A stretch of 64,000 bases of DNA, taken from the NCBI GenBank assembly GCA_036788695.1, contig DAIQMY010000001.1:236134-300133 (forward strand). The letters are read 5' to 3'. Source of the DNA: Candidatus Levyibacteriota bacterium (GTDB taxonomy: Bacteria > Patescibacteriota > Microgenomatia > Levybacterales > GWA1-39-11). A program made the translations under genes and the position numbers. This document shows positions 1,587-36,833 of this stretch, piece after piece (the stretch's first letter is position 1; every line of letters begins with the position of its first letter). Below the pieces are notes generated by a model, which saw only the letters and a list, made by a program, of their open reading frames with translations, did not search any database and was not told the DNA's origin.

Positions 1587-1666
1587 CAGGTAATCGAGCA
1601 GACATGAAAACAACTTTAACAAAAATATAGAACCTACGCAAGATTGAAAAGGGCGCAAAAAAGGGC

Positions 1667-1695
1667 TTGACAGAATTTAGCAGTCATGTTATATT
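1667..1695 (+). promoter_or_regulatory. Sigma70-like promoter TTGACA-N17-TATATT upstream of hrcA
   Basis: TTGACA at ~1667-1672, a 17-nt spacer, and TATATT at ~1690-1695, about 60 nt upstream of the hrcA ATG. Confidence 0.5.
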
Positions 1696-1703
1696 ATTGC
1701 TAA
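1677..1703 (+). promoter_or_regulatory. CIRCE-like inverted repeat (putative HrcA operator) overlapping the -10
   Basis: TTAGCAGTC-N9-TATTGCTAA, compared with the CIRCE consensus TTAGCACTC-N9-GAGTGCTAA. The outer TTAGCA / TGCTAA arms are conserved and the inner arms are degenerate. Confidence 0.5.
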
Positions 1704-1754
1704 TCTGCATAAAATATATGCATAATAAGTTTTTATATTCTAGATTTTAAATGT

Positions 1755-2474
1755 ATGTATGATCTAACACCACGGCAGGTTGATATTTTAAAGCTAATAG
1801 TAAGAGAGTATATTGATAACGCAGAGGCAGTAGGGTCAGAAACTCTTGAGAAAAAACACGATGTGGGGATATCCCCTGCAACTATTAGAAATGAAATGGC
1901 AGCTATGGTTAAGTTGGGATATTTATCAAAAGCTCACACATCAGCAGGAAGAATTCCAACTACGAAAGCTTTAAAGCTTTACATAAACGAGCTGATGCGT
2001 GAAAAAGAGCTGTCTGTTGCTGATGAGGTTCAGGCAAAGGAACATGTTTGGGACTTACGTTCTCAAGAAGAAAAGTTTTTAAGAGGCATAACGAGGGATT
2101 TGGCGCAAAAGACAAGAACGCTTGCAGTTACAACAACAGATGACGGAGATATCTACTATTCAGGGTATGCAAATATTCTTGAAACGCCAGAGTTTTATGA
2201 TATTGATATAGCAAAGAATTTATTATCAATTTTAGATAGCGCAGTATGTTTTGACTTGATTACAAAAAGAATTGAAAATGAATTAGGAGTTTTTTTAGGA
2301 GATGAACTTGGAAGTGATATGTATAGACCGTATAGTTTTGTTTTTTCAAGATTTCACACTAAAAATATTAATGGATCAATTGGGGTTGTAGGTCCTGCAA
2401 GAATTAGGTACGAGCTCGTAATCCCCACTGTACGATTTTTTGGCGGTCTTATTGGTGAGGTAGCTGAGTGGTAA
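1755..2474 (+). CDS. hrcA: Heat-inducible transcription repressor HrcA (short form, 239 aa)
   Basis: The N-terminal wHTH region (LTPRQVDILKLIVREYIDNAEAVGSETL...ISPATIRNEMAAMVKLGYL) matches HrcA. The gene sits immediately upstream of grpE-dnaK. Confidence 0.85.
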   Translation: MYDLTPRQVDILKLIVREYIDNAEAVGSETLEKKHDVGISPATIRNEMAAMVKLGYLSKAHTSAGRIPTTKALKLYINELMREKELSVADEVQAKEHVWDLRSQEEKFLRGITRDLAQKTRTLAVTTTDDGDIYYSGYANILETPEFYDIDIAKNLLSILDSAVCFDLITKRIENELGVFLGDELGSDMYRPYSFVFSRFHTKNINGSIGVVGPARIRYELVIPTVRFFGGLIGEVAEW

Positions 2475-2481
2475 TAAAAAG

Positions 2482-3018
2482 ATGGATGACAAAACACAAA
2501 AACCAAAAGTTGAAGAAAATCTGGATGAAATAGAAGAGCTAGACGATGAATTAGATGAAGAAGAGGAGAAGTTGGCATCCGAGCAAAGAGAGCAGGCGGG
2601 ACTGAAGGAGAGAATTACAAGCCTTGAAGACCAGTTGAAGCGGGCAGTTGCGGATTATAGAAATCTTGAAAATAGAGTTCGGGAGGAGCGTTTAGAATTT
2701 GTTAAGTACGCAAACAGATCACTTATAGAGCAGTTGCTCCCAGCATTTGACACGCTTCTACTTGCTGAGAAATACACAAAAGACGAGAATTTAAAAATTA
2801 CGGCTAAGCATATATTGGAGGTATTAAAAGTTGCGGGAATTGAGAAGGTTGAAACAATTGGTAAGAAGTATGATCCTATCACCATGGAGGCGGTAGAAGT
2901 AATAGAGGGAGATAAGGAGAAGGTGCTTGAAGAGACACAGCCTGGATTTACGATATATGGGAAAATTATAAGACCCGCAAGAGTTAAAGTTGGGGGAAAA
3001 GATACGGTAAAAGAGTAG
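2482..3018 (+). CDS. grpE: Nucleotide exchange factor GrpE
   Basis: An acidic N-terminus and coiled coil (LEDQLKRAVADYRNLENRVREER), followed by a GrpE C-terminal beta domain (KKYDPITMEAVEV...GFTIYGKIIRPARVKV). Confidence 0.85.
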   Translation: MDDKTQKPKVEENLDEIEELDDELDEEEEKLASEQREQAGLKERITSLEDQLKRAVADYRNLENRVREERLEFVKYANRSLIEQLLPAFDTLLLAEKYTKDENLKITAKHILEVLKVAGIEKVETIGKKYDPITMEAVEVIEGDKEKVLEETQPGFTIYGKIIRPARVKVGGKDTVKE

Positions 3019-3090
3019 GGGTAGATTGAGATACTTTATGATTCTTGAAATTTAAGAGAGAATGCATAATAATAAGAAGGAATAAAAAAT

Positions 3091-5022
3091 ATGTCTAAAA
3101 TAATTGGAATAGATTTAGGAACAACAAATTCATGCGTTGCAGTAATGGAGGGCGGCGCGCCAAAAGTAATATTTTCTGCGGAGGGTAGAAATGTAACCCC
3201 ATCTGTTGTGGATCCAGTAGATAGAGTGGTTGGTGATGTTGCGAAAAGGCAAATGGTTTTAAAGCCAAAGCGTATCATTTTTTCTATAAAACGTCTTATG
3301 GGTCGTCGTTTTAATGATCCAACCGTTCAAGAAGACATAAAGCTGCTTCCCTATACCGTAAAGGCAGGGAAGGATGGACTTGCTGTTGTAGAGGTAGACG
3401 GAAAAACATATACGCCTCAAGAAATTTCAGCGATGATTCTGCAGAAAATAAAGTCTGATGCTGAATCGTATTTAGGAGACAAAATTACCCAGGCAGTTAT
3501 CACAGTTCCTGCGTACTTTGATGACGCACAGCGTCAAGCTACAAAACAGGCGGGAGAAATAGCAGGGCTAGAAGTTTTGCGTATCGTAAATGAGCCAACG
3601 GCCGCCGCGCTTGCTTATGGATTGGATAAAAAACATGCACACACAATTGCTGTATATGATATGGGTGGTGGTACGTTTGACGTATCTATATTAGAGTTAG
3701 GCGAAGGTGTATATGAGGTAAAATCTACAAATGGTGATACGCATTTAGGTGGAGACGATTTTGATCAGAAAATTATTGATTATCTTGCGGACGAATTTAA
3801 GAAAGAAAACAGCATTGATTTAAGGCGCGATCCTCAGGCGCTTCAAAGACTAAAAGAAGCAGCTGAAAAAGCAAAGATTGAATTATCATCATCTTCAGAA
3901 GCTGAAATCAATCAACCATTTATTACCCAAGGACCTAATGGACCACTTCATCTAACCATGAAGTTGTCTCGTGCAAAACTTGAGAGTATTGTAGGTGATT
4001 TAATTACAAAATCATTTAAATCTGTTGAATCAGCGCTCAAAGATGCAGGACTAAAAGCATCTGATGTGAATGAGATTATTATGGTCGGGGGTATGACCAG
4101 AATGCCAAAGGTAGTTGAGGAGGTAACAAAATTCTTTGGAAAAGAACCCAATAAAAGTGTAAACCCGGATGAGGTAGTAGCAATTGGAGCAGCTGTTCAG
4201 GCAGGAGTATTAGGGGGAGACGTGAAAGATGTATTGCTTTTAGACGTAACTCCACTGACGCTTGGTATTGAAACATTGGGTGGGGTTGCAACACCACTTA
4301 TTAATAGAAATTCAACAATTCCGACAAAGAAATCTCAAGTATTCTCAACTGCAGCAGATAATCAGACTCAGGTAGAAATTCATGTTGTTCAGGGTGAGCG
4401 TCCTATGGCAGCGGATAATAAATCTCTGGGAAGATTTGTTCTGGATGGAATTCCACCTGCTCCTAGAGGTGTTCCTCAAGTTGAGGTTGCATTTGATATA
4501 GATGCCTCAGGAATTCTTTCTGTTTCAGCAAAAGATAATGCAACAGGTAAAACGCAAAGCATTAAGATTACTGGAGGTACAGGTCTTTCAAAAGATGAAG
4601 TTGAAAGAATGACAAAAGAAGCAGAGGCACATGCTGAAGAAGATGAGAAGAAAAAGGAGTTGATTGAAGTAAGAAATAGAGCGGATGGACTCATCTTTAC
4701 CGCAGAAAAATCATTAAAAGACTTGGGAGAAAAAGTTCCTGCAGATTTAAAATCAGACGTTGAGGGGAAGATTTCTGCTCTGAGGGAAGCATTAAAAGGT
4801 GAAGACAAGGCAGATATAGAAGCAAAGACACAAGAGTTATCTGACCATCTATCCAAAATTGGTGAGACTATGCAAAACCAAGCTGGACAGCCTGGTGGAC
4901 AGGCAAGTTCAGGAGATTCTGGCGGAGAACAGCCATCTCAGGAGACATCACAGGCGAATCAAGACGGATCTGAAGCATCCACGGATAAAGACGAAGCCGT
5001 TGAGGGAGAAGTAGTAAACTAA
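3091..5022 (+). CDS. dnaK: Chaperone DnaK (Hsp70)
   Basis: Carries [26 protein letters not shown] and [16 protein letters not shown] motifs, and is full length with an acidic/G-rich C-terminal tail. Confidence 0.95.
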
Positions 5023-5131
5023 TTTAGGCGTTTTCTTGTAAACGTTTCTTTACTTTTTATCATATTTCCACAAAATATTTATGATTTCATGCTTACCTAT
5101 ATGAGGTGGTAGAGTAAGTAGGTAAAAAAAG

Positions 5132-5821
5132 CTAGTCTGTGTATGCAATTTTTTTGGGGGTAAACACTTTTTTTATTGATTCAACAACCCCTTTATGAGC
5201 AAGCTTATTATATAGCTGACGTGCTTCTCTTTCTGACGCATGATAGTCAAAGATACGACTTGTTTTTTTTGTAACACCTAACCCCAGATCGCCCAGAATT
5301 ACGTTCGCATTTCCCTCAGAGTCGACAATAAAAAAATAGGTATCTTCGTATATATTAAAGCCTGCTCTATCTGCTTTTTGTGAAATTTCAATAAGCTGCT
5401 TCTTAACATTTTGTTTATTTTTAATAACCTCTTCAAAATCTACTTTTTTTTCAAATATCTCATTCATAGAAAATACTAATTTCTTATTTCCCTCTGTCAG
5501 ATCTGTTACGATTATGCTTCTTGTGCCCTCAATTTGCCTAACGGTTAGAGGAACAGGAAGGTCAGCTTGTTTCAATTCCAGATAATGTTTTACATAATCG
5601 TCTGAAACAAAAAACTCCCATGCTCGTGCATATTTAGGATCTCTTTCAGCAAATTTTCCCGCATTTCTTTCTCTCCCATTTTTTATGAGTACTAATTCTT
5701 GGATTATATATCTTGCTTCGTTGCCACTTCCTATATAAGTACCGTTTCCCCTAAGGAATACTTCTGACTTACGTCCAGTAAGTGGCGAGATGAGTGTTTT
5801 TCTTTCGTGATTTTCTGGCAT
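5132..5821 (-). CDS. Hypothetical protein with a minimal protein-kinase-like motif order (Bud32/RIO/KdkA-like?)
   Basis: In kinase order it has a Gly-rich IGSGNEARY, then VLIK (VAIK-like Lys), then IVDSEGNANVIL (catalytic-loop-like D...N), then GDLGLG (DFG-like), at ~229 aa. There is no confident family assignment. Confidence 0.3.
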   Translation of the reverse strand: MPENHERKTLISPLTGRKSEVFLRGNGTYIGSGNEARYIIQELVLIKNGRERNAGKFAERDPKYARAWEFFVSDDYVKHYLELKQADLPVPLTVRQIEGTRSIIVTDLTEGNKKLVFSMNEIFEKKVDFEEVIKNKQNVKKQLIEISQKADRAGFNIYEDTYFFIVDSEGNANVILGDLGLGVTKKTSRIFDYHASEREARQLYNKLAHKGVVESIKKVFTPKKIAYTD

Positions 5822-5861
5822 GAGTAGTATTATAGCAATAATTGTGCATCCGTTATAGGAT

Positions 5862-6173
5862 ATGCTAGTATTAATACATATGGCTTGTGCAGTAAATGAA
5901 GTAGCAACAGAATTAGGTTGTCTTCCTGATGATCCAGTAGGTTTTGTTCAAAAGTTTTATGGTTGGGGACTTTCTCTTATTGGAATGGTTGGGATTTTGT
6001 TTCTTATTTATGGAGGTTATCACATTCTAACATCCGGTGGGAATCCAGAAAGATTACAAAAAGGTAAGGAATATATATATTATGCAATTGCAGGAATTTT
6101 ACTCGCTGTTTTTGGGTATGTATTTGTAGAATTTATTGCAGGGTCAATACTTAGAATTCCCGGATTTTCATAA
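5862..6173 (+). CDS. Small two-TM protein resembling a TrbC/VirB2-type pilin core
   Basis: About 100 aa with two hydrophobic helices (GWGLSLIGMVGILFLIYGGYHIL and IYYAIAGILLAVFGYVFVEFIAGS) separated by a short polar loop (NPERLQKGKEY). There is no obvious cleavable leader. Confidence 0.3.
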   Translation: MLVLIHMACAVNEVATELGCLPDDPVGFVQKFYGWGLSLIGMVGILFLIYGGYHILTSGGNPERLQKGKEYIYYAIAGILLAVFGYVFVEFIAGSILRIPGFS

Positions 6174-6181
6174 TTTTTATT

Positions 6182-8344
6182 ATGTTAAAACAACTGCCCA
6201 TATTGTTTTTTTCAATACTGCTTTTATTGGTGTTTTCCTCTCGTGTGAGCTTTGCACAGTCAACATCAACAGTGAATACTTCCAAAAATCCTTTGGGAAC
6301 AGTAAATATTAAAATAGCAGATAATTCTGATTCTGTTCAGATTGATGATTCAGTGACTCCTGCAGTTGGGGATTGGATACCTGATTCAACGGTTACATTT
6401 GTGGGAAAAACAGCGAATAGGGCTGGAGATTTTCTTGATTGGACTATTCGGAATTATGACTGGACATGTGTAAAAACGAACACTGGATCATGTACGAGCG
6501 CGGGAAATCCATTAGTGGGCTTCTGGGCGCTTATCAGGAACATTGTATATGCGCTTCTTCTTATTGTAGTGTTGATTGCAGCTTTTGTGATGATAATAAC
6601 ACGCGGTAAAAGCCTGACAATAACACGTTTTATTCCACGATTTATATTTATTATTATATTAGTAACCTTATCATATGCACTTATACAACTTGCCTATCAG
6701 GTGACGGATATTGTCCAGGGATTTTTTCTTAGAACGGATGGAAAGCTTATCTCAACAAAAGACTTAATATTTATTGGATTTGATTATAAGAATTTTGAGG
6801 GAGCAAGGCGATATGGTTCACAGTATGATGAATCAGCTTTTATCACTCTCTTATTAGTACGGCTTACGGCTCTAACGTACTACGTTATGACAGGGGTGTT
6901 GTTAGTAAGAAAGATTATTTTATGGTTTTTTATTATCTTATCGCCTGTTTTTCCGCTTTTGCTCTTTTTTAAGCCCGTAAGAAATACAGGTAAAATATGG
7001 GTAGGTGAGTTTTTTAGATGGTTATTATACGCACCTCTTTTTGCAATATTTTTACAAGGATTAGTTGTACTGTGGAAGAGCAAAGGAGGTATACCTCTAG
7101 CATTTGATTTTACAAATGTGGGAAATGTTATCTACCCTACCGCAGTAAATATTTTAATAGGAGGACCTGGACAAAAGATATTTTTTGATACAGAAACAAG
7201 TTCTAACAGTGTTAACTTACAGGATACATTTGCGCTTTACATTGTAGCCTTGTTGATGTTATGGGTGGTAATTATATTGCCATTCTTGCTTCTTAAAATT
7301 TTCTTAGATTACTTAGGTGGGATATCACTTCAAGATAATGTGACAATGAAAAGGCTTCTTAATCGTGGATCTGAATTTTTACCAATTAATCGTCCTCCAA
7401 CTTCTCCTCCACCTGCTTCACTTCCGCCATCTCAAGGTGCGGGTAGAGCTATGCAAATACCATTTAATGCGTCTGCTTCCCGAAATATATCTGATACAAG
7501 AGCAATGAGTTCAGCACAGGCAAATCGTTCTATTGCGTCTATTCCGGTTAATGCACAGATATTGCAACTCGCTAATTTATCAGTACCAAAAATGCGAGAT
7601 ATTGCTCGTTTTGAAACATCTATGGTAACTCATAATTCGTCTAAAATGCAGGATGTCTCAAGACTAAAAACATCACTTACGAGAATTTCAAATCCTACTA
7701 CTATCACTGCTCCATTAGAGCGAGAAAGATATACGCAAGTAAAACAACAATTAATGTCAGAGAAACAAAAAGGTAATGTTCTGGCATCCTCAATTTTGAC
7801 TGCAGCAAACACAACAGCCGCTCCTTATCAGAAAGGAATGGTTTCATCCCAACAGGTTCATTTGCCGCAAGCAAATAAAGTTCAACAAGTAAGCATAGAA
7901 GACTACGAAGAAGTAAGAAAAATGTGGCAAGATACGTACCAAAATTCGACACCTCCAACTGATCTTTCAGGAAAGAAGGATTCAAGAGAAGAGTGGATTA
8001 AAGGAGATATAGATAAAATCAATCAAGCTATAACACTTTTAAATTCCGTTGATCCGGTAAGAACTCAGGAGGGAATGGATATGGTTTCAAATATACTTCC
8101 GTTCCTTATGATTGGTGGTTTCTCGAAAACTGAAGTTGTTGCCTATCTCAAGGCGAAGTTAGAGGCTGCCAAGGATGTTCTTTCATCAAGTTCCAAGAAA
8201 AATGAAGAAGACGATACTATGATTGATCGTAAAACAAAAACTGCAACTGCGGAAAATCATATGAGCACTCATGCAGAGGCAGAAGTTCCAACAGTAGATG
8301 ATGGCACAAAAAAACTTGAAGAATTAAGAAAACAAGGGCTATAA
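6182..8344 (+). CDS. Signal-peptide-bearing polytopic membrane protein, VirB6/TrbL-like topology, with a long S/T/Q-rich C-terminal region
   Basis: Has an N-terminal signal (LLLLVFSSRVSFAQS), a ~70-aa ectodomain, at least five TM helices, and a ~350-aa polar tail. It starts 9 nt after the small two-TM gene. Confidence 0.3.
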   Translation: MLKQLPILFFSILLLLVFSSRVSFAQSTSTVNTSKNPLGTVNIKIADNSDSVQIDDSVTPAVGDWIPDSTVTFVGKTANRAGDFLDWTIRNYDWTCVKTNTGSCTSAGNPLVGFWALIRNIVYALLLIVVLIAAFVMIITRGKSLTITRFIPRFIFIIILVTLSYALIQLAYQVTDIVQGFFLRTDGKLISTKDLIFIGFDYKNFEGARRYGSQYDESAFITLLLVRLTALTYYVMTGVLLVRKIILWFFIILSPVFPLLLFFKPVRNTGKIWVGEFFRWLLYAPLFAIFLQGLVVLWKSKGGIPLAFDFTNVGNVIYPTAVNILIGGPGQKIFFDTETSSNSVNLQDTFALYIVALLMLWVVIILPFLLLKIFLDYLGGISLQDNVTMKRLLNRGSEFLPINRPPTSPPPASLPPSQGAGRAMQIPFNASASRNISDTRAMSSAQANRSIASIPVNAQILQLANLSVPKMRDIARFETSMVTHNSSKMQDVSRLKTSLTRISNPTTITAPLERERYTQVKQQLMSEKQKGNVLASSILTAANTTAAPYQKGMVSSQQVHLPQANKVQQVSIEDYEEVRKMWQDTYQNSTPPTDLSGKKDSREEWIKGDIDKINQAITLLNSVDPVRTQEGMDMVSNILPFLMIGGFSKTEVVAYLKAKLEAAKDVLSSSSKKNEEDDTMIDRKTKTATAENHMSTHAEAEVPTVDDGTKKLEELRKQGL

Positions 8345-8394
8345 GGTATACTTGCAAAATAAGTATAAAATCCACATAATAGAATACACTGCCT

Positions 8395-11055
8395 ATGTTC
8401 GGAAATTTATTTAATTCAGGAAAACAGAACGACCAGATTGTAAGTCATGACACTCGGGTAAATATTGGAGATCCTGCACTTGGGGGAACAAGTATTTCCA
8501 TTAATTCGTCAGATAACCCAAATCAGATACAGCCCCCTCCTGTTTCTCAAAGCGCTGTCGGAATGGATCCACAAAAAAGGGAAAATATGTTTGCCTTGTC
8601 GCGTCTTGATCCTCGAGCACTCCAAGTTCTTCATCATGCTCAGGAAGAAACTAAGCGCTTGTCTCAAGAATTTATTAATCCTGAGCAGCTTTTGCTAGGG
8701 CTTTTTTATGATGGGGATGTATTTCGCATATTAGAGCAATTCAGTGTAGATGTAGCTAAGTTAACACATGAGATTCAAGCAAAAGAAAAGCCGGGCGCTT
8801 TTTCTGGACAACCCACTATGGGTCCAAGCGTTGTTAAAATTTTTGATGAGGCATATTCGAATGCAAAAAAAAGAGGAGCCTCATTTGTTTCCCCTGAGGA
8901 TATAATGGTTGCACTTTTTTCGGAAACATCAACTTCTGAGTTTTTAAAAACATTTGGGGTACAACGTGATAAATTAGAGGAAAAATTATCTAAATCTACC
9001 GGATATGCTTCATCTTCAAGAAAAAGTGTGCTTGAGAGATATGGGATTGATCTGACTCAAGAAGCAAAGGACGGAAAGTTAGATCCTATTGCGGGTCGTG
9101 AGCGGGAAACAGAACGTTTAATACACATTTTATTAAGAAGAACCAAGAATAACCCAATCATAATTGGTGAGGCAGGTGTAGGAAAGACAGCAATTGTCGA
9201 ATCGCTTGCACTTAAAATTGCAGAAGGATCAGTTCCTCATGATCTTCTCAATAAGCGAATTATTCAGCTAGAGCTCGCATCACTTGTTGCGGGAGCTTCA
9301 CATAGAGGTGAATTTGAGGAGAGGTTACAGGATGTAATTAAAGAGACACAGGCATCAAATGGTCAAGTAATATTATTTATTGATGAGATACACACGCTTA
9401 TAGGGACTGGGGATACACAGGGAGCTATGGATGCTTCCAATATTATAAAACCATATTTGGCAAGAGGGCAGTTGCAGCTTATTGGAACTACGACTACTGC
9501 TGAGTATCGTAAATATTTTGAAAAAGATAAAGCATTTGAAAGGCGCTTTCAGGCAGTGTTAGTAGATGAACCTACTGAAGATGTTGCAGAACAAATGCTT
9601 GAAGTTTTAAAGCCAAAATATGAAAAATTTCACTCTGTTGAGATTACCCCAGAGGCAATTCAAGCCGCGGTTCATCTTTCAAAAAAATATATAGGAGAAA
9701 GATATTTACCTGATAAGGCGGTAGATTTACTAGATGAAGCAGCAGCTGAGGTAAAACTACAACATACAGAAGGAAAAAGACAGGATAACAAGGTTGTAAA
9801 ATCAGACATAGAGAAAGTTGTATCTGCCTGGACTGGAATTCCCATAACTCGTCTAACTGAAGATGAATCTCAGAAGTTAATTCATTTGGAAGATATTATT
9901 CATAAAAGACTCATTGATCAAGAAGAGGCTGTTGCGGCAGTATCTGAAGCAGTCAGGCGTGGAAGGATTGGTCTTGCGAGTGCAAACAGACCAATCGCAT
10001 CATTTATTTTCTTGGGTCCAACTGGAGTTGGGAAAACGGAACTAGCAAAAACTCTCGCGGAAATTCTCTTTGGGCGGGACGATCTTATGATAAGACTAGA
10101 CATGTCAGAGTACATGGAAAAACATGAGGTTGCAAAACTTATAGGTGCCCCTCCTGGTTATGTGGGGTACGAAGAAGGTGGGCAGTTGACGGAAGCAGTG
10201 CGCGCAAAGCCTTACTCAATAGTACTTTTAGATGAAATAGAAAAAGCCCATCCAGACGTATTCAATATTTTACTCCAGTTGCTAGAGGATGGAAGACTTA
10301 CTGATAATAAAGGGAATACTATATCTTTTAAGAATACAATTATTATAGCAACATCAAATATTGGGTCTTCCCTTATTCAACAAACTCTTTTAACGCAAAG
10401 TTCAAACGCAACTCAAGTAGTTTCTCCTGCAGAGGAAGCAAAAAGATTCTCATCTTTATCAAAAACATTGATGGATGAATTAAGGAAGTTTTTTAAACCA
10501 GAATTATTAAATCGTTTTGATGAGATAGTAATGTTTAAGCCACTGCGCCAACAGGACATGATGCAGATCGCAAGAATAGGGATATCCAAAACACAAAAAT
10601 TATTAGCAGAACAGGATATAGACCTAACTATAACTGAAAAAGCTCTTGGTGTATTGTCAAAAGAAGGTTACGATCCGGTTTATGGAGCACGTCCGCTCAG
10701 AAGACTTATACAATCATCCATAGAAAATCCAATCGCAATACTTCTTATTAACAAAACGTTTGTGGCGCATGATACAGTTCAAATTGATTATGATGATACA
10801 AAAGCACAGTTTACTTTTACAAAACTGGTACAAGCTGTGGATAAAAAAGAACAACCACCTACTGCAACACCTTCAACACAAGCAGCAACTGAACCAACCA
10901 ACACAACAACAGTTAAGTCTACTGAGACAGCAAACGGGAATGGGATCTTGTCTGATATTGCAAAAGAGCACTCGGCTGTTACGCCTCCGCCTACACAAAC
11001 AACTCCTCCAACGCCATCAGTTGACGCAAGTGGCACTATGATGCAACCCGCCTAA
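8395..11055 (+). CDS. Class-I Hsp100/Clp AAA+ ATPase (ClpA/ClpC-like, two AAA modules, no M-domain)
   Basis: Has Clp_N repeats. D1 carries GEAGVGKTAIVE and ILFIDEIHTLIG (intact Walker A/B) plus an ERRFQ arginine finger. D2 carries FLGPTGVGKTELAK, LLDEIEKAHPDV, GARPLRR and LLNRFDEIVMF. Only ~28 aa separate D1 and D2, so there is no ClpB-type coiled-coil M-domain. It has low-complexity N-terminal (~70 aa) and T/P-rich C-terminal tails, and no IGF/L ClpP loop is apparent. Confidence 0.8.
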   Translation: MFGNLFNSGKQNDQIVSHDTRVNIGDPALGGTSISINSSDNPNQIQPPPVSQSAVGMDPQKRENMFALSRLDPRALQVLHHAQEETKRLSQEFINPEQLLLGLFYDGDVFRILEQFSVDVAKLTHEIQAKEKPGAFSGQPTMGPSVVKIFDEAYSNAKKRGASFVSPEDIMVALFSETSTSEFLKTFGVQRDKLEEKLSKSTGYASSSRKSVLERYGIDLTQEAKDGKLDPIAGRERETERLIHILLRRTKNNPIIIGEAGVGKTAIVESLALKIAEGSVPHDLLNKRIIQLELASLVAGASHRGEFEERLQDVIKETQASNGQVILFIDEIHTLIGTGDTQGAMDASNIIKPYLARGQLQLIGTTTTAEYRKYFEKDKAFERRFQAVLVDEPTEDVAEQMLEVLKPKYEKFHSVEITPEAIQAAVHLSKKYIGERYLPDKAVDLLDEAAAEVKLQHTEGKRQDNKVVKSDIEKVVSAWTGIPITRLTEDESQKLIHLEDIIHKRLIDQEEAVAAVSEAVRRGRIGLASANRPIASFIFLGPTGVGKTELAKTLAEILFGRDDLMIRLDMSEYMEKHEVAKLIGAPPGYVGYEEGGQLTEAVRAKPYSIVLLDEIEKAHPDVFNILLQLLEDGRLTDNKGNTISFKNTIIIATSNIGSSLIQQTLLTQSSNATQVVSPAEEAKRFSSLSKTLMDELRKFFKPELLNRFDEIVMFKPLRQQDMMQIARIGISKTQKLLAEQDIDLTITEKALGVLSKEGYDPVYGARPLRRLIQSSIENPIAILLINKTFVAHDTVQIDYDDTKAQFTFTKLVQAVDKKEQPPTATPSTQAATEPTNTTTVKSTETANGNGILSDIAKEHSAVTPPPTQTTPPTPSVDASGTMMQPA

Positions 11056-11079
11056 CTTCTTCTTGGTATAATAAAATAT

Positions 11080-12834
11080 ATGCAAAGCATACTTCATGTG
11101 TTAAGGCGTATTGATACTCGTTTTTTTCTGTTGCCATTTTTATTATTTGCATTTGGAGCAATTGGATACGTAGCTGTCCAGGGGATATTTTTTCAAAATG
11201 ATAAAATATTTCCTCAAGGCGTACGGTATATTCCTGATCAAATAATAGTTAAATATAAAATTGGTCAATCTCCAGATGAACTTCAAAACGCGGGTAAGAT
11301 AGAAAATAGAAAAGTTCTCTTATCAGCATTATCAAATGTGGGTGTTGTCTCACAAAAGAGGCTATATGTTTCAGAAAATTCTTTGCTTGAAAATTATTAT
11401 GTATTAACGCTCAAGCCTGGTTTTACTGTTCCAGACGCATATAATAAGATCACAAAGATACCCGAAATAGAAAATGCTGCACCTGACTATATATTAAAAA
11501 TACAAGAGATGCCTAATGATCCATACTACCCATCTATGTGGAATCTTTCTAAGATTAAAGCAGAATTAGCGTGGGATTCTGTGCATGTAGGCGGGAGAGT
11601 CACAATTGCAGTTATTGATACGGGAGTTGATTATCAGCATGAGGATTTAAAAGATATCGTTATAAAAGGAAAGAATTTTATTTTAAATGATAATAATCCA
11701 ATGGATGACCAGGGGCATGGAACGCATGTTGCAGGAATAGCTGCCGCAGTTACAAATAATGGTATTGGGATAAGTGGTGCTACATGGGGAGCTAAAATAT
11801 TGGCTATTAAAGCCTGTGATAAAAATGGGGATTGTAGTACGGCAAATGTTTCAAGAGCTATTCAGTACGCTGTAGATAATAATGCAAAAATTATAAATGT
11901 CAGTATTGCTGGGAGCGGTTCGTGTAATGGAACATATACAGATGTATTAAGATATGCGGCAAGAAAAGGCGCGATAGTAGTTGTTGCTGCAGGAAATGGA
12001 AATAATGGGGATGGAATAGGTGTAAATGTAGAATCCCAAATACCCGCATCGTGTGAAGGTTCTATTGCGGTAGGTTCAATAACAGCAGATGGTAAAAGGT
12101 CAGGTTTTTCTAATTTTGGATCCAAAGTTGAAGTTTCAGCTCCGGGTGGTGTTGGTCCTTGTACTATGGAGAGTTGTATTATTTCAACCAGTATTAATAA
12201 TTCGTACTCACTTCGTTCTGGAACATCTATGGCAGCCCCTCAGGTGAGTGCTGTCGCCGCTCTCCTTTTAGCTTCTGATAAAAATTTGTCTATGTCAAAA
12301 ATTAAATCCTGTATTTTAAGTGGAGGAGATAACATTCAAACAGATAAAAGTATCGGTCTTCTTCTGAACGCCCAAAATTCCCTAAAGATTTGTACTAAAA
12401 TTGAGGCAACTCCTACTCCAAAAATGAGTAAAAATAATTCGTCTATTGCGGGTACTGTATTTATTGACGAAAATAAGAATAAAAAGCTTGACTCAATAGA
12501 AAAAACATTATCGTCTGCCCAGATAATCTTGTCCGGCTTAAGTAATGATAGTGTTCTTAGTAACTCAAAAGGTAAATATTTATTTTTGGGGTTACCGGGT
12601 GGTTTATACACAATATCTGCAACCCTAAATGGGCAAAGCGTAATTGTACCTATAGACGTATCTGTTGCATCAGATAATTCGGTTCAACTTAATATACCTA
12701 TATCTTCGGAGATGGTGATTATTACGCCAACACCTTCATTCGCAAAGCAAAAAACTGCGTCTTATTGTTTCATAGACCCCGAGTGTTTAAAGAGTAGGAA
12801 CTCAGTTCAAATATGTTCGTTTCGGTGTGAGTAA
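11080..12834 (+). CDS. Subtilisin-like serine protease (peptidase S8), N-terminal TM/signal anchor
   Basis: Catalytic triad contexts VTIAVIDTGVD (Asp), HGTHVAGIAAA (His) and GTSMAAPQVSAVAALL (Ser), with a hydrophobic N-terminus and a C-terminal beta-rich extension. Confidence 0.8.
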   Translation: MQSILHVLRRIDTRFFLLPFLLFAFGAIGYVAVQGIFFQNDKIFPQGVRYIPDQIIVKYKIGQSPDELQNAGKIENRKVLLSALSNVGVVSQKRLYVSENSLLENYYVLTLKPGFTVPDAYNKITKIPEIENAAPDYILKIQEMPNDPYYPSMWNLSKIKAELAWDSVHVGGRVTIAVIDTGVDYQHEDLKDIVIKGKNFILNDNNPMDDQGHGTHVAGIAAAVTNNGIGISGATWGAKILAIKACDKNGDCSTANVSRAIQYAVDNNAKIINVSIAGSGSCNGTYTDVLRYAARKGAIVVVAAGNGNNGDGIGVNVESQIPASCEGSIAVGSITADGKRSGFSNFGSKVEVSAPGGVGPCTMESCIISTSINNSYSLRSGTSMAAPQVSAVAALLLASDKNLSMSKIKSCILSGGDNIQTDKSIGLLLNAQNSLKICTKIEATPTPKMSKNNSSIAGTVFIDENKNKKLDSIEKTLSSAQIILSGLSNDSVLSNSKGKYLFLGLPGGLYTISATLNGQSVIVPIDVSVASDNSVQLNIPISSEMVIITPTPSFAKQKTASYCFIDPECLKSRNSVQICSFRCE

Positions 12835-12876
12835 AACTTAGAAAAATGACCTTATATCTGGTAGAATAGGTAACAC

Positions 12877-13746
12877 ATGAAAAAGGATTATTACGAGATA
12901 CTCGGCGTATCAAAGAGTGCGACTCCTGACGAATTAAAAAGGGCATATAGAAAATTGGCCCTGCAGTATCATCCAGATAAAAATAAAACCCACGAAGGTG
13001 AGGAAAAATTTAAGGAAATAAACCATGCATATGAAGTGCTTTCAGATCCTGGAAAGCGTGCGACGTATGATCAGGTCGGTCCGTCTGGATTTGATGGAGG
13101 CGCAGGCGCTGCGGGTGCAGGAGGACCATTTGGTGGGCAGAGGGGTGGTCAATACGGACCGTTTACCTACACATATGGGAATGGTGCGGAGGGAGCAAAT
13201 TATGATTTTGGCGGGTTTTCTGACCCGTTTGAGATCTTTGAGCAATTTTTTGGGGGTGGATACGCAAAGCGTAAACCAAGATACAGTATAACGATAGACT
13301 TTTTAGAGGCAGTTCATGGTACTTCAAAGAAGGTTTCAATAGATGGGAAAGCTCAAACAATTAAAATTCCTGCAGGAGTAGATAACGGATCAAGAATTCA
13401 ATTTCCAAACTATGAAGTCATTGTAGGAGTGAGAGGAAGTAGCAAATTTCACAGAGAAGGAAATGATATTATAACTGAGAGTGTAGTCCCGCTATCTATT
13501 GCCATTCTTGGTGGAACCATAGAAATAGAAACTGTGCATGGTCAGGTAACACTTAAAATTCCTGCAGGAACTCAACCGGACACCCTTATGAGAATAAAAG
13601 GAAAGGGTGTGCCTCGTGTTAGGGGTGGAGGAAGCGGTGATCATTTTGTTCGAATTAAAATTCTCATTCCAACAAGGATAAACTCACGACAAAAAGAATT
13701 ACTTCATGAGTTTGATGAAGAAAGCCGTAAGAAGAAGTGGTTTTAA
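12877..13746 (+). CDS. DnaJ-family co-chaperone (J domain, G/F region, C-terminal substrate-binding domains), no zinc finger
   Basis: [35 protein letters not shown] is a J domain with HPD, followed by a G/F-rich region. There are no CxxCxGxG repeats, so it is CbpA/class-B-like. Confidence 0.75.
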
Positions 13747-14153
13747 TAAGAGTCAGAGAATTAGATTCCCAAGCTATTGCTTTCCCTCGTTATAAACATC
13801 TAATATGTATACATATGGGTATTCTGTCCTATCCTCTTTTGGTGGTTTTGTTTTGGTATAAAGAAGGTATATTTTATATCTTGTTGTATTTCCGTTCGTT
13901 TGACGACTACTGCATACGACTACTCTCATTGCATGGATTATTCTCAAGCTATTTTAAGCCGCTTAAAAACGAGTACAGAAAGAATCTTATTTTGTTTTCA
14001 ATACTTTTTGGGGTGATTGTCAAAACATGTTTAATTGCCATATCTCTCCTTCTATTGTTTTTCATTTTACTTTTTGAGGGACTATTGCTCCTCCTCTATA
14101 TTCTTTTTCCAATTCTGCCTTTATTTATTCTATTTTTATCTAAATATATATGA
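13737..14153 (+). CDS. Hypothetical small hydrophobic protein; may be spurious AT-rich translation
   Basis: A 138-aa ORF in an otherwise ~400-bp gap that overlaps the downstream Hsp100 paralog start as ATGA. Its composition is dominated by F/I/L from AT-rich DNA. Confidence 0.2.
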
Positions 14154-16528
14154 GTCTTATGAAAAATCTTGATCTGTTTAGCTTGTATGTTTTTTATAAT
14201 AATATATTCGTAAAAACCTTTCGTTTTTTAATACTTTTTTTATTAACGATTGCCTTGTTCTACGTAATAAGTGATTTATATTTGTTTAGAATAATTCTTA
14301 GTTTTTATATTGTATTTCTTGTAAATGAAATTTTTATTCATTTTAAGATTAATAAATCCCATCCTTTCAACACAGTAATGATAAGTAGCGACTTGCCTGA
14401 GAAGGCAGTACTGCTGAACGTAAGATATTTGATTTGGTCAAAAAGTAATAATGCTTTTCTTGAGAAATTAATAAAGCAGAAAGATGTTCTATTCTTTATT
14501 ACAAAAATCGACGGATTTAAGGTGTCTTCTGTTGAATTCAATATGACTGGGTTACTTAACAAAGCATCTTCGCTTGCGCAAGCCTGCAAGGGGACATACA
14601 TAACTGCCGCTGATATTTTTGCAGCATATCTTCTTATAACTGAAAACGAAAGCCATCTTTTGGATCAAAAAGAGTTAACAGAGAACGATATTTTGGAAAT
14701 ACTTTTATGGAGTAGGGAAAAATATAATTTTGATAAGGTAAAAGATTTTACGATGCATTTTACAGGAGCGGGTGTTTTTGATTTTTTTATCTACGGTTGG
14801 AATACTCAATTAAAAGAATACTCACTTGATTTAACGTATAGCGTACTTGGGAAAAATATGGCACCTGTTGTAGGGAGAGAAAAAGAGTTTTCTCAAATGG
14901 TGGGAATATTATCAAAAAATTCAATCAATAACATATTAATAATAGGAGAACCTGGTGTTGGAAAATCTTCTCTTGTATCACTTCTGGCATTAGAAGCATA
15001 CCGAAATACGAGATTTATTTTACATAGCACTGTTGTGTATGAGCTTCTTGTTGATAGGCTGCTTGCTGGCGTTTCAGATGCGGGAGAGTTGGAAACGCGC
15101 CTAGGCTTACTACTTTCCGAAATCGAACATATTGGAAATGCTGTACTCTTTATTCAAAACATGGAAAATATCTTTGGAGCTGGAGGGTTTGGTTTTGATA
15201 TGTCGGGAATATTATTTTCCTATTTAAAAAATGGAAAGGTACAGATAATAGGTACAACTACACCGTCATTTTATAAAACTATAATTGAAAAGAAATCAAG
15301 TATTATGAGCTTGTTCGAATTATTAAGGCTAGAGGAACCTGACCGTGATGTCTCACTGCAAATGATTGTGGCCCATGTTGATACTATTGAAAGAGAATAT
15401 CATGTGACCATTTCATATAAAGCAATACATGAGGCATTGGAATTGGCCTCATCATTTCTTCCCGAAACATTTCTTCCTGGGAAAGCAATTATTCTTCTCT
15501 ATGATATTTCGTCGAGGGTTAGGCTTGCGGGTGGAGGTCAAGTTGAGAAGGAGGATGTGGTGAAGTTTATTCAAGAAAAGACAAATATTTTACTTGAAAG
15601 GCCAGATGTAGACGAGAAAAAAGTTTTATTATCTCTAGAGCAAGAATTGCACAAGAGAATAATAGGGCAAGATGAGGCGGTGACTGCAATTTCAAAAGCA
15701 ATAAGAAGGCTCAGGAGTGGTTTTTCTCAGAGTAAACGTCCAATTTCAACTTTTCTCTTTTTAGGTCCTACGGGAGTCGGAAAAACGGAAACAGCAAAGG
15801 CACTATCTCAAATATACTTTGGGGATGAGGCAAATATGATCAGACTTGACATGAGTGAGTATCAGACACAAAATGAGGTGGAAAGATTGTTAGGCGGTGT
15901 TCCTGGAGGGATAGAAATAGAAAACTCATTACCTGAGCAGGTTAGGCTTCATCCTTTTTCACTAATACTATTAGACGAATTTGAAAAGGCACATCCGCAT
16001 ATATTAGATATTTTTCTACAGGTTTTTGAAGATGGTCGACTTACGGATAATAGTGGTAAAACGGTTTCATTTAAAAATACTATTATTATCGCAACAAGCA
16101 ACGCGGGCTCAGAGTCAATTCGTGAGATGATGCATGAAGGGAAAGACCCATTTCTTGCGAAAGACGTTTTAGTAGAGGGATTACTTAGGGAAGGAGTTTT
16201 TAAGCCAGAACTTTTAAATAGGTTTGATGATGTGATTATTTTTACCCCACTTTCTGTTTTTGAAGCGACTGAAATCGCGAAGTTGATCTTGGCATTATCT
16301 TTGAAGTCATTAGAGGATGAACAGATTTTTATAGGATTTGACGACAAGGTTGTAAGTAAAATAGTGCACGATTCATTTGATGAAGAGGCTGGTGCTAGAA
16401 ATATGAGAAGATATGTAGGGTCGACTATTGAGGACTATATATCAAAGCTTATACTGGAAGACAAGTTGCAAAAAGGAGCACATGTAACTTTAACTGTCGA
16501 CGAGACCAACAATTTTATATTACAATAA
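14150..16528 (+). CDS. Membrane-anchored Hsp100/Clp paralog with inactivated D1 (pseudo-ATPase) and intact D2
   Basis: The N-terminal ~70 aa are hydrophobic (2 TM), followed by a Clp_N-like domain. D1 keeps a Walker A (GEPGVGKSS), but its Walker B is VLFIQNMENIF versus ILFIDEIHTLIG in the upstream paralog, so DE has become QN, and its arginine finger ERRFQ has become MSLFE. D2 is intact (FLGPTGVGKTETAK, LILLDEFEKAHPHI, GARNMRR, LLNRFDDVIIF). An alternative start lies at Met77 (~14378). Confidence 0.7.
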   Translation: MSLMKNLDLFSLYVFYNNIFVKTFRFLILFLLTIALFYVISDLYLFRIILSFYIVFLVNEIFIHFKINKSHPFNTVMISSDLPEKAVLLNVRYLIWSKSNNAFLEKLIKQKDVLFFITKIDGFKVSSVEFNMTGLLNKASSLAQACKGTYITAADIFAAYLLITENESHLLDQKELTENDILEILLWSREKYNFDKVKDFTMHFTGAGVFDFFIYGWNTQLKEYSLDLTYSVLGKNMAPVVGREKEFSQMVGILSKNSINNILIIGEPGVGKSSLVSLLALEAYRNTRFILHSTVVYELLVDRLLAGVSDAGELETRLGLLLSEIEHIGNAVLFIQNMENIFGAGGFGFDMSGILFSYLKNGKVQIIGTTTPSFYKTIIEKKSSIMSLFELLRLEEPDRDVSLQMIVAHVDTIEREYHVTISYKAIHEALELASSFLPETFLPGKAIILLYDISSRVRLAGGGQVEKEDVVKFIQEKTNILLERPDVDEKKVLLSLEQELHKRIIGQDEAVTAISKAIRRLRSGFSQSKRPISTFLFLGPTGVGKTETAKALSQIYFGDEANMIRLDMSEYQTQNEVERLLGGVPGGIEIENSLPEQVRLHPFSLILLDEFEKAHPHILDIFLQVFEDGRLTDNSGKTVSFKNTIIIATSNAGSESIREMMHEGKDPFLAKDVLVEGLLREGVFKPELLNRFDDVIIFTPLSVFEATEIAKLILALSLKSLEDEQIFIGFDDKVVSKIVHDSFDEEAGARNMRRYVGSTIEDYISKLILEDKLQKGAHVTLTVDETNNFILQ

Positions 16529-16535
16529 TATTACT

Positions 16536-17537
16536 ATGAAAATATCAATCTTTGAAGTTGAAAAATGGGAGGAAGACTTTTTAAAAAAATCTTTGCGTAG
16601 TTCTGATGAGTTATCGTTCTTTAATCATCCCCTTACTCTTTCAGACATAGATTCTATAAGAGACACAGATGCTATAATCATTTTTATCTATTCTTCTATA
16701 ACAAAAGAAATTCTTGATGCCTTACCTAATCTCAAATTTATCGCGACTATGTCAACAGGTTTTGATCACATTGATCTTTCAGTTTGCAAAGAAAAGAATA
16801 TACTTGTTAGTAATGTTTCAGGATATGGTGAAATTACCGTGGCGGAACATACCTTTAGCCTTCTCTTAGCTCTTTCTCACAGGCTTATAGAATCATACGA
16901 ACGAGTAAAAGAGGGATACTTCTCACCTGAGGGGCTAACCGGATTTGATTTATCTGGTAAAACGCTAGGTGTTGTTGGGGTGGGTAGTATTGGGACTCAC
17001 GTTATAGAAATAGCTCATGGATTCAACATGAATGTCTTAGGATATAAAAGAAGTCCTGATCCTGAACTTGAAAAAAGGTTTAATTTTAAAATTGTTGATC
17101 TTCCGACTCTTTATGCAAAGTCTGATATCATCTCACTTCATGTCCCATACACAAAAGAAACGCATCACATGATAAATGATGATGCACTTTCTCAGATGAA
17201 AGATAAAGTTGTTTTAATAAATACTGCAAGGGGCCCACTCATTGACACAACTGCAGTTCTTAAATATTTGGATAATGGCAAGTTAAGAGGAGTAGGTTTG
17301 GACGTGTGCGAAAACGAGCCAATGCTACGAGAAGAGAAGCAAATATTATCAAAGGAATTTAATAAAGAGGATCTCCTATGTATGCTTGAGGAAAAAATGC
17401 TTTTAAACTATAAAAATGTGATAATAACTCCACACAATGCATTTAATAGTAAGGAGGCATTAGAATTAATACTGCAAACAACCGTGGACAATATCTCAGG
17501 GTTTATCAATAATACTCCCAAGAATACGGTTTCCTAG
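16536..17537 (+). CDS. D-isomer-specific 2-hydroxyacid dehydrogenase (D-lactate dehydrogenase family)
   Basis: A Rossmann GxGxxG (GVVGVGSIGTHV), a catalytic His context (VIITPHNAFNS) and a family-typical length of 333 aa. Confidence 0.75.
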   Translation: MKISIFEVEKWEEDFLKKSLRSSDELSFFNHPLTLSDIDSIRDTDAIIIFIYSSITKEILDALPNLKFIATMSTGFDHIDLSVCKEKNILVSNVSGYGEITVAEHTFSLLLALSHRLIESYERVKEGYFSPEGLTGFDLSGKTLGVVGVGSIGTHVIEIAHGFNMNVLGYKRSPDPELEKRFNFKIVDLPTLYAKSDIISLHVPYTKETHHMINDDALSQMKDKVVLINTARGPLIDTTAVLKYLDNGKLRGVGLDVCENEPMLREEKQILSKEFNKEDLLCMLEEKMLLNYKNVIITPHNAFNSKEALELILQTTVDNISGFINNTPKNTVS

Positions 17538-17540
17538 TTT

Positions 17541-33297: not shown

Positions 33298-33308
33298 TAC
33301 ACATATAA

Positions 33309-34826: not shown

Positions 34827-34909
34827 ATGTGCACGGTGAAGGATTGATTCTAGCAGAAAATGAGGTGCAAGCGCAAGAGTATATGTATTAGTATTTTTTT
34901 TGAGATGAT

Positions 34910-36121: not shown

Positions 36122-36123
36122 AC

Positions 36124-36819: not shown

Positions 36820-36833
36820 GACATTGTTATTTT

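Follow-up and report, generated by a model that had tools for sequence, protein, structure and literature searches.

A pilin/VirB6-like module and two atypical Hsp100 proteins beside the dnaK operon of a Candidatus Levyibacteriota bacterium

Why are dnaK and dnaJ of a Candidatus Levyibacteriota bacterium separated by genes for a pilin, a polytopic membrane protein, a two-ring Hsp100 ATPase and a subtilisin-like protease, and why does a second, membrane-anchored Hsp100 gene follow dnaJ? The question is raised by a stretch of 64,000 nucleotides (contig DAIQMY010000001.1, positions 236,134 to 300,133 of the forward strand), which was analysed at its full length and is referred to here as the window. 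The initial annotation of this DNA had placed about 7.8 kb between the two chaperone genes, and by measurement dnaJ starts 7854 bp past the stop of dnaK. It had also proposed a co-regulated module for envelope proteostasis rather than a chance insertion. In our study, the region is best read as a type IV secretion-like pilin/VirB6 module with dedicated atypical Hsp100 proteins, placed beside the chaperone operon, and a mechanism for it can be proposed from the sequences and from the gene neighbourhood.

Conservation of the cluster across genomes

Synteny was studied in 80 loci, one genome per species, which were found by a scan with an alignment of the VirB6-like family. The open reading frames (ORFs) of these loci were called and matched to the window proteins by BLASTP; as the loci are the best matches to a VirB6-family query, the set is biased towards Levybacteria. 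The homologues of the VirB6-like protein carry the names Candidatus Levybacteria or Levyibacteriota (Microgenomatia, in the Patescibacteria or candidate phyla radiation), and Levybacteria are ultra-small bacteria of groundwater. Numerous related records bear the title 'uncultured Gammaproteobacteria bacterium', which is unreliable, as these genomes belong to Levybacteria/Microgenomatia by gene content and similarity. The contig of the window also occurs in a public assembly of run SRR2107210.

The VirB2-like pilin gene (5880-6173 on the plus strand of the window, with an ORF callable from 5862) lies immediately 5' of the VirB6-like gene (6182-8344, plus strand) in 77 of the 80 loci, with a median gap of 3 bp, and the gene of the first Hsp100, here called Hsp100a (8395-11055, plus strand), is the next annotated gene after the VirB6-like gene in 69 of them (median gap 50 bp). 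Further downstream, the median gap is 7 bp between Hsp100a and the S8 protease gene (11080-12834, plus strand) and 1 bp between a gene for a small membrane protein (13815-14153, plus strand, callable from GTG 13737) and that of the second Hsp100, Hsp100b (14150-16528, plus strand). The dnaK gene was found on the same strand and at most 7 kb upstream of the module in 49 of the 55 loci with at least 7 kb of upstream sequence, whereas the outer flanking genes are retained in just 6-7 of the 80 loci. Since the order is kept in 80 species-level genomes while the outer flanks are not, the linkage of the cluster to dnaK and dnaJ is clearly selected and is not a product of chance, and the earlier view that the genes are no chance insertion is borne out by the synteny.

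Two layouts were recognised in the 56 genomes that could be classified. Layout A, found in 23 loci including the window, has the order hrcA-grpE-dnaK-pilin-VirB6-Hsp100a-S8-dnaJ-(small membrane gene-Hsp100b), and layout B, found in 33 loci, has the order hrcA-grpE-dnaK-dnaJ-pilin-VirB6-Hsp100a-(S8)-small membrane gene-Hsp100b. The sole mobile member between the layouts is dnaJ, which never leaves the cluster. The initial description of a module lying between dnaK and dnaJ thus fits layout A but not the larger group, in which dnaJ stands directly after dnaK (33 of 56). In some genomes, a conserved protein of about 500 residues without Pfam or PHROGs match is encoded in or beside the pilin/VirB6/Hsp100a cluster (L029, 6059-7582; L043, 7259-8722, minus strand; L048, 7043-8548, minus strand; L057, 6620-8146, minus strand; L074, 3779-5323), with E-values down to 1e-164 between the copies. 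This protein may explain the gaps of up to 1.7 kb between the VirB6-like and Hsp100a genes of some Levybacteria loci.

The Hsp100a subfamily is also found beside type IV secretion-like genes where dnaK is not near. The Daviesbacteria-like loci L043, L047, L048, L057 and L074 have no dnaK within 10 kb; in them, Hsp100a is followed by a PF18895 pilin, more pilins, a VirB6-like gene and a gene for a SpoIID-domain protein, and the order in L074 is pilin-VirB6-Hsp100a-pilin. Eight look-ups were anchored on representatives of the Hsp100a family rather than on VirB6. A pilin, VirB6-like or PrgI gene lies within about 1.5 kb of the Hsp100a relative in six of these eight, all in other Microgenomatia, a count that comes from a small sample: PrgI in L086 (Gottesmanbacteria), pilins in L087 and L089, VirB6-like genes in L091 and L092, and the full layout-B cluster in L093. 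No hrcA, grpE or dnaK was present in the returned stretch for five of the six; L093 is the only one with the dnaK operon in view and is, for that reason, no test of independence from dnaK. As the subfamily adjoins pilin, VirB6-like or PrgI genes without a nearby dnaK, its tie would be to a type IV secretion-like apparatus rather than to heat shock as such.

That these genes recur as neighbours in varied arrangements is what chiefly argues for a functional tie of Hsp100a to the pilin/VirB6 pair, and it is from this repetition that a physical or functional coupling of the products is derived. We consider the chances that Hsp100a is functionally coupled to the pilin/VirB6 apparatus to be about even. 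Envelope proteostasis, as proposed at first, is one possible label for the module, but the subfamily also stands beside pilin, VirB6-like or PrgI genes in lineages where dnaK is not nearby. In L091, an IS200-type Y1 transposase gene (10426-11073, minus strand) lies between the Hsp100a-like gene and a convergent VirB6-like gene, which suggests a recent disruption of their adjacency.

Architecture of the encoded proteins

Hsp100a is a protein of 886 residues with a Clp_N domain and two intact AAA+ modules. Its closest relatives in the PDB are ClpC (E 2e-207) and ClpB (E 2e-201), both of which align in two stretches with their M-domains skipped (about residues 425-515 of ClpB and 412-470 of Staphylococcus aureus ClpC), and ClpA aligns in one stretch. 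The junction between the rings was found to be 60-63 residues long in 60 of 64 orthologues, as compared to about 115 residues in ClpC-like and about 175 in ClpB-like representatives, which were classed by length and by the ClpP-loop motif. The absence of the M-domain, which had been noticed at the outset, is thereby confirmed, and a scan of Hsp100a with PF02151 (UVR motif) gave no match. The Walker A and B motifs are intact in both rings (GVGKT and IDE in ring 1, GVGKT and LDE in ring 2) and are conserved in the 64 orthologues. The first pore loop is SHR and not KYR, with the exact sequence AGASHRGEFEERL in 53 of the 64 orthologues and tyrosine-free variants in the others; the second pore loop, GYVGY, is intact and conserved. 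None of the 64 orthologues has the ClpP-docking tripeptide (I/L/V/M)-G-(F/L) in the ring-2 loop, which is variable and of low complexity, unlike many generic ClpC-like representatives, in which LGF, IGF or VGF is present. The tails and one D2 loop of Hsp100a are also of low complexity.

Hsp100a falls below the curated NCBIfam cut-offs of ClpB, ClpA, ClpV, ClpK and ClpG, with 896.2 bits against the ClpB model TIGR03346 (cut-off 1232.1) and 696.9 bits against the ClpV/TssH model TIGR03345 (cut-off 884.95). The median identity of its orthologues is 64%. In an exhaustive search of 1.84 billion representative proteins, the nearest clusters have a non-aromatic first pore loop (SHR, SRR, SKR or KHR) and no IGF loop; one of them is from Gottesmanbacteria, and generic ClpC and ClpB proteins start at about 690 bits. 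The M-domain of ClpB is the known site of its coupling to DnaK. As the loss of the M-domain in Hsp100a removes this site, a classical DnaK-ClpB bi-chaperone would not be expected here.

Hsp100b (792 residues, with N-terminal transmembrane helices) has an identity of 39% to Hsp100a along a colinear stretch of 598 residues, and both lack the M-domain. Its ring 1 is degenerate in 37 orthologues: the Walker B motif has QN, as in the window protein, or PS or PE in place of DE, no pore loop remains, and SLF has taken the place of the arginine-finger motif ERRF. In ring 2, Walker A, Walker B and the GAR sensor are kept and the pore loop is acidic and aromatic-free, so that neither pore loop carries an aromatic residue. 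About 46 orthologues were found, after which the scores drop sharply to generic ClpC and ClpB proteins. The small membrane protein of 112 residues, encoded between dnaJ and Hsp100b, had been missed in the initial gene list; it has homologues in 36 loci, always directly 5' of Hsp100b, and no family match in Pfam, NCBIfam, PADLOC or PHROGs. The pair is present in 20 of the 31 loci with enough downstream sequence.

The nearest outside relatives of Hsp100b come from other Patescibacteria (L082, 9624-12754; L084, 9640-12754). These proteins of 917 residues combine a zinc ribbon (CxxC...CxxC) at the N-terminus with transmembrane helices, a Clp_N domain and a Walker B motif that is degenerate in ring 1. 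Each is preceded, with a gap of 2 bp or an overlap, by a gene for a membrane protein of 122-124 residues. These small proteins are only weakly similar to that of the window (hidden Markov model E 4e-4 and 0.065), and both scored above 200 shuffled controls. As these outside pairs are not near dnaK or VirB6, the small gene and Hsp100b seem to form an independent unit of two genes, which became part of the cluster in Levybacteria, and the outside pairs may represent a wider family of membrane-anchored Hsp100 pairs to which that of the window is related.

The pilin (97 residues from ATG 5880) matches PF18895 (T4SS_pilin) with 34.1 bits against a cut-off of 26.6 and has hydrophobic segments at residues 31-57 and 70-99, forming two helices; it also matches the NCBIfam Mbov_0395 pilin-like family below cut-off. 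The VirB6/TrbL-like protein (720 residues) has a weak match to PF04610 (TrbL/VirB6), with 21.5 bits, below the gathering cut-off of 25.9, and an E-value of 2e-4. Among 28 of its homologues, 17 match PF04610 at E <= 0.01 (best 2.2e-5), and one homologue is labelled 'type IV secretion system protein' by NCBI. The protein begins with a signal peptide and an ectodomain containing a Cys96/Cys104 pair, after which come six hydrophobic segments, a linker rich in proline and a C-terminal domain of about 340 residues, helical and conserved, for which the charge counts of the loops indicate no clear side of the membrane. A profile of the family found nothing among the PDB sequences, and a tblastn search against plasmids gave only an insignificant match (E 0.5), which lies under a 'type IV secretion system protein'. 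The family is a good candidate for the VirB6 that has been missed in Microgenomatia.

The S8 subtilase (584 residues; PF00082, E 5e-53) is anchored in the membrane at its N-terminus and has a prodomain and, at the C-terminus, a beta-sandwich domain. Its triad is intact (D180/H213/S383, with canonical motifs), and its best NCBIfam match is mycosin TIGR03921 with 164.6 bits, below the cut-off of 278.75. Of the 31 loci that extend far enough downstream, 25 have its gene, with identities of 29-89%; it is a variable accessory gene. DnaJ (12877-13746, plus strand, 289 residues; PF00226, PF01556) has a J-domain with HPD at residue 32, a G/F-rich region and a C-terminal domain; it scores 234.9 bits against the class-A model TIGR02349 (cut-off 377.2). 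As it has neither the zinc finger nor any cysteine, it is a class-B J-protein. On the whole, the initial protein descriptions (VirB2-like, VirB6-like, Hsp100, anchored S8 and membrane-anchored Hsp100) were essentially right.

Transcription signals and surroundings

The promoters and terminators given here are pattern matches only. The hrcA gene (1755-2474, plus strand, 239 residues; PF01628 E 1.4e-18, and PF03444) is followed by grpE (2482-3018, plus strand, 178 residues; PF01025 E 3e-27) and dnaK (3091-5022, plus strand, 643 residues; PF00012 E 6e-259), and the median identity of dnaK over 62 loci is 76%. Upstream of hrcA lies a sigma-70-like promoter (1667-1695, plus strand; TTGACA-17-TATATT with TG before the second hexamer), which is the best promoter-like match within 1500-17800 (11 of 12 positions). 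Its -10 box is overlapped by an inverted repeat like the controlling inverted repeat of chaperone expression (CIRCE), TTAGCAGTC-N9-TATTGCTAA at 1677-1703, which is the single match in 64 kb, with 3 mismatches to the consensus and 0.01 matches expected by chance, and which is the presumed HrcA operator. In 51 related loci a CIRCE-like element lies at most 200 nucleotides upstream of hrcA. No such element stands before the pilin, VirB6-like or Hsp100a gene in any locus examined. A second CIRCE-like site (TTAGCACTC-N9-..ACTGATAA) was noticed 2.4-4.7 kb upstream of hrcA in L012, L014-L017, L020, L022, L024 and L036, and the gene behind it is possibly groES/groEL.

The pilin gene has a putative promoter of its own at 5842-5871 on the plus strand (TTGTGC-18-TAGTAT with an extended -10, TGC). 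As this -10 ends 8 nucleotides before ATG 5880, the mRNA is probably leaderless or nearly so, and the pilin start is probably ATG 5880 and not 5862, as first listed. The pilin upstream regions share an extended -10 element (TGCTACTAT, TGCTACGAT or TGCTAGTAT) at 4-10 nucleotides before the start codon. The pattern TGnTAnnWT at this distance from an in-frame start was found in 51 of 85 pilin genes and 18 of 58 dnaJ genes (31%), as compared to 0-8% of the hrcA, grpE, dnaK, VirB6-like, Hsp100a, small-membrane and Hsp100b genes and a background rate of 0.09 per 100 nucleotides. This suggests that leaderless or near-leaderless mRNAs are used for the pilin and dnaJ genes in these organisms.

For dnaJ in the window, a promoter-like site (12839-12867, plus strand; TAGAAA-17-TAGAAT with TG) stands 9 nucleotides before the start, with no CIRCE-like palindrome in this region; such a palindrome precedes the relocated dnaJ in 10 layout-A loci, the window not among them. 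In layout B, the gap between dnaK and dnaJ carries a GC-rich hairpin and then a T-run and TATAAT in 20 of 25 loci. Hairpin and T-run sites elsewhere were found in 2 of 17 dnaK-pilin gaps (layout A), 1 of 26 dnaJ-pilin gaps and 1 of 56 VirB6-like-Hsp100a gaps. The dnaK-dnaJ hairpin (e.g. AGCGCGGTAAACGCGCT) is directly followed by TTTTATAATATAATA, with the dnaJ start 6-10 nucleotides on, in L027, L028, L030, L044, L050, L069, L073 and others. The hairpin may act as a terminator to which a leaderless-type promoter is joined; alternatively, it may be a palindrome at the -35 position that binds a protein. In the window, no plus-strand terminator-like site with a T-rich tail was found in the intergenic gaps of 5022-16528. 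The first such hairpin past the cluster, GGCTCTCACAAGAGCC at 17604-17619, lies between convergent genes and may mark a 3' end; its T-rich tail is on the minus strand only (ATTTTTATAA, as compared to CTTCGTTTAG on the plus strand).

The most economical reading of these signals would be three adjacent units, and a single HrcA-controlled operon is not supported by them. The first unit would be hrcA-grpE-dnaK, with its promoter overlapped by the CIRCE-like operator. The second, with its own leaderless-type promoter, would comprise the VirB2-like pilin, the divergent VirB6-like protein, Hsp100a and usually the anchored S8 protease, and the third would comprise the class-B dnaJ and the pair of small membrane protein and anchored Hsp100b. 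The dnaJ promoter would lead the pilin unit in layout B and the small-membrane-gene/Hsp100b pair in layout A. Read-through from dnaK may still occur in layout A; in the window, however, a gene on the opposite strand lies between dnaK and the pilin. It is an ORF of 229 residues (5132-5821, minus strand), unassigned to any family, without match in Pfam, NCBIfam, PADLOC or PHROGs; it recurs only in the two closest relatives (L002 and L003, L001 being the window's own contig) and is a lineage-specific insertion outside the conserved module.

The window genes were read from the ORF listing together with Pfam and NCBIfam scans, and both scans agree with the genes and positions that had been listed initially. 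The gene cluster, the architectures of its proteins, the states of their motifs and the positions of the sequence elements are all direct observations. Upstream of hrcA lies an ornithine/aspartate carbamoyltransferase gene (615-1658, minus strand), and 7 bp after Hsp100b a D-2-hydroxyacid dehydrogenase gene (16536-17537, plus strand; PF02826, PF00389), which is next to Hsp100b only in near relatives (7 loci). The remainder of the 64 kb is housekeeping in nature (queA, tgt, nusA, infB, pnp, RNase J, ftsK, alaS, efflux pumps and sortase), and the tRNA and Rfam scans of the window found nothing. The GC content is 0.30-0.41 across the window without a compositional break, the cluster matching its flanks and the lowest values falling on the small hydrophobic ORF and the N-terminal end of Hsp100b. 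Three further observations were made. The minus strand of 29962-38069 has, side by side, the genes of an AcrB-type RND pump (1111 residues), of two HlyD-like adaptors and of a MacB/FtsX ABC pair; efflux parts of this tripartite type deserve notice in a Patescibacteria cell presumed to have a single membrane. A 388-residue AAA+ protein with a Lon-type lid domain, in which the protease domain was not detected, is encoded at 45067-46233. At 56931-60013, the gene of a 770-residue protein without Pfam match shares 4 bp with the start of the sortase gene, and the protein may be a substrate of the sortase or a surface protein.

Proposed mechanism, rival explanations and related systems

In the mechanism proposed for the module, Hsp100a would be an ATP-driven unfoldase without ClpP docking and without M-domain coupling to DnaK or MecA. 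It would act at the cytoplasmic face of the pilin/VirB6 apparatus, either in the extraction or recycling of pilin or in the unfolding of exported proteins, and DnaK, DnaJ and GrpE would hold clients or hand them over. The S8 protease would process exported material extracellularly. Hsp100b with its small partner would be a membrane-tethered regulator or adaptor which hydrolyses ATP in ring 2 only, and not a threading motor. In the most specific form, a pilin/VirB6 machine derived from type IV secretion would assemble pili or export proteins with Hsp100a as its motor on the cytoplasmic side, fed by DnaK/DnaJ and tethered or gated by the membrane-anchored pseudo-ATPase Hsp100b. This form is drawn by analogy to ClpV in type VI secretion and HSP101 in PTEX, and we regard it only tentatively, as a possibility with the odds well against it.

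Several points weigh against the secretion-like reading. The AlphaFold2 model of the VirB6-like protein has a predicted local distance difference test score (pLDDT) of 60.8 and no structural match in the PDB, and the VirB6 similarity stays below the Pfam cut-off. Six membrane segments after a signal peptide would place the C-terminal domain of this protein outside, beyond the reach of Hsp100a. The look-ups L088 and L090 (two of the eight) have no type IV secretion-like neighbour. Hsp100b may be an independent unit, the pair being missing downstream in 11 of 31 loci, and Hsp100a could be the lineage's only general chaperone of the ClpB/ClpC type.

The last of these points leads to a rival explanation, in which Hsp100a is a general disaggregase or unfoldase, a streamlined ClpB/ClpC of a reduced genome and hence near dnaK, and the pilin and VirB6-like genes, mechanistically unrelated to it, are its neighbours for another cause, such as high expression of the region. 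Such a role would fit the good conservation of Hsp100a and its highest similarity to ClpC and ClpB, as well as the two look-ups just mentioned, and clpB belongs to heat-shock regulons in many bacteria. However, the adjacency to pilin, VirB6-like or PrgI genes recurs across lineages, including five of the eight look-ups where the dnaK operon is not in view, the genes are very closely spaced, and the lost M-domain leaves no classical DnaK-ClpB bi-chaperone to be expected; we therefore regard this explanation as rather unlikely. An equally doubtful place is given to the view, closest to the initial annotation, that hrcA to Hsp100b form one co-transcribed HrcA/CIRCE stress operon for envelope protein quality control, with the pilin and VirB6-like proteins as clients or platform. 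All genes but one are co-directional with short gaps, terminator-like sites are missing from the window gaps and from all but two of the 17 layout-A dnaK-pilin gaps, and dnaJ is never outside the cluster. Co-regulation as one unit with dnaK has nevertheless become doubtful, since CIRCE-like elements never precede the pilin, which has its own conserved promoter element, and a hairpin with T-run follows dnaK in most layout-B loci. The opposite-strand gene interrupts the series in the window, the CIRCE-like palindrome of the relocated dnaJ would be needless if read-through from hrcA sufficed, and the link of Hsp100a to pilin/VirB6 persists without dnaK.

A further explanation would take the inserted genes as the remnant of a mobile element (e.g. 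an integrative conjugative element) or as a defence island, such as an IetAS-like pair of AAA+ ATPase and S8 protease. The pilin and VirB6 families are indeed typical of conjugative elements, and PADLOC gave weak matches to IetS, IetA, DolB and PDC-M37B. Against this, no relaxase, VirB4, VirD4 or integrase gene was found in the 64 kb window, the GC content matches the flanks, and the chromosomal position is constant in dozens of species. The PADLOC matches are limited to generic AAA and S8 cores, and PHROGs gave nothing. The mobile element was rejected for its lack of mobility genes, the uniform composition and the fixed position, and the IetAS/Dodola-type defence system for its merely partial matches; we find the whole explanation very improbable.

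In relation to known systems, secretion-dedicated Hsp100 proteins and the Patescibacteria type IV secretion-like system are the known kinds here, and the window cluster is a variant of both. ClpV (TssH), which is dedicated to type VI secretion, resembles Hsp100a in its two rings, its N-domain, the absence of a ClpP-docking loop and its encoding in a secretion cluster, whereas Hsp100a scores below the ClpV model cut-off and has neither the M-domain nor a tyrosine in its first pore loop, and the scans of the window revealed no type VI secretion genes. The ClpB-DnaK and ClpC/MecA-ClpP systems are closest in sequence and share Clp_N and two active rings, and Hsp100a adjoins dnaK, dnaJ and grpE, but it has no M-domain (the site of DnaK or MecA control) and no ClpP loop and lies below the ClpB and ClpA cut-offs. 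ClpI of Actinomycetota is likewise a lineage-specific third class of two-ring Clp, with some sub-classes lacking the LGF ClpP-docking motif; its M-domain is as long as that of ClpC and its translocation motifs are intact, whereas Hsp100a, from another phylum, is without both the M-domain and the first tyrosine (PMC10149685). In Plasmodium, the translocon PTEX uses the unfoldase HSP101 to feed proteins to the membrane pore EXP2, and HSP101 (6e10) is a PDB relative of Hsp100a (E 8e-152). PTEX is eukaryotic with an unrelated membrane partner, and the likeness would lie at the level of the proposed mechanism only. The type VII accessories mycosin MycP and AAA+ EccA combine a membrane-anchored S8 protease and an AAA+ ATPase beside a secretion apparatus, as in the window. 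The window protease differs from MycP in its anchor, which is N-terminal and not C-terminal, and in its score below the mycosin cut-off, and no other type VII genes are present.

The nearest comparison is the Patescibacteria type IV secretion-like system (VirB4, PrgI/VirB3, VirB6 and VirB2-like pilins). The window cluster shares with it a PF18895 pilin beside a VirB6-like protein, a chromosomal location and the absence of a relaxase, and relatives of Hsp100a adjoin PrgI genes and pilin arrays, but the cluster has no VirB4 or coupling protein in 64 kb, and its VirB6-like protein has the extra C-terminal domain. A survey of this system has described VirB6 as 'scarce' in Microgenomatia and ascribed this to extreme divergence; it has also reported that PrgI of Microgenomatia is mostly away from virB4, that virB4 is near dnaA and that arrays of VirB2 (PF18895) are abundant, and it mentions neither DnaK nor Clp (PMC12102498). 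Our literature search found no paper that links Hsp100 proteins to type IV secretion in Patescibacteria, and nothing relevant on M-domain-less Hsp100 proteins or on the Clp content of Microgenomates beyond this survey and the ClpI paper.

Patescibacteria depend on other cells, and type IV secretion-like genes matter for that lifestyle, being among the few systems shown to be essential to the host-dependent lifestyle in a cultivated relative (as cited in PMC12102498). If the coupling is merely regulatory or accidental, the cluster would be a well-documented lineage-specific one of limited general importance. If the link between Hsp100a and the pilin/VirB6 apparatus is true, the VirB6-like family would be a concrete candidate for the 'missing' VirB6 of Microgenomatia, the two Hsp100 proteins would be new subtypes with clear sequence signatures, and a testable mechanism would be available for the assembly or use of a surface apparatus. 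Should Hsp100a act as a motor, this would be a new way of powering a type IV secretion-like system and could explain why the canonical VirB6 appeared to be 'missing'.

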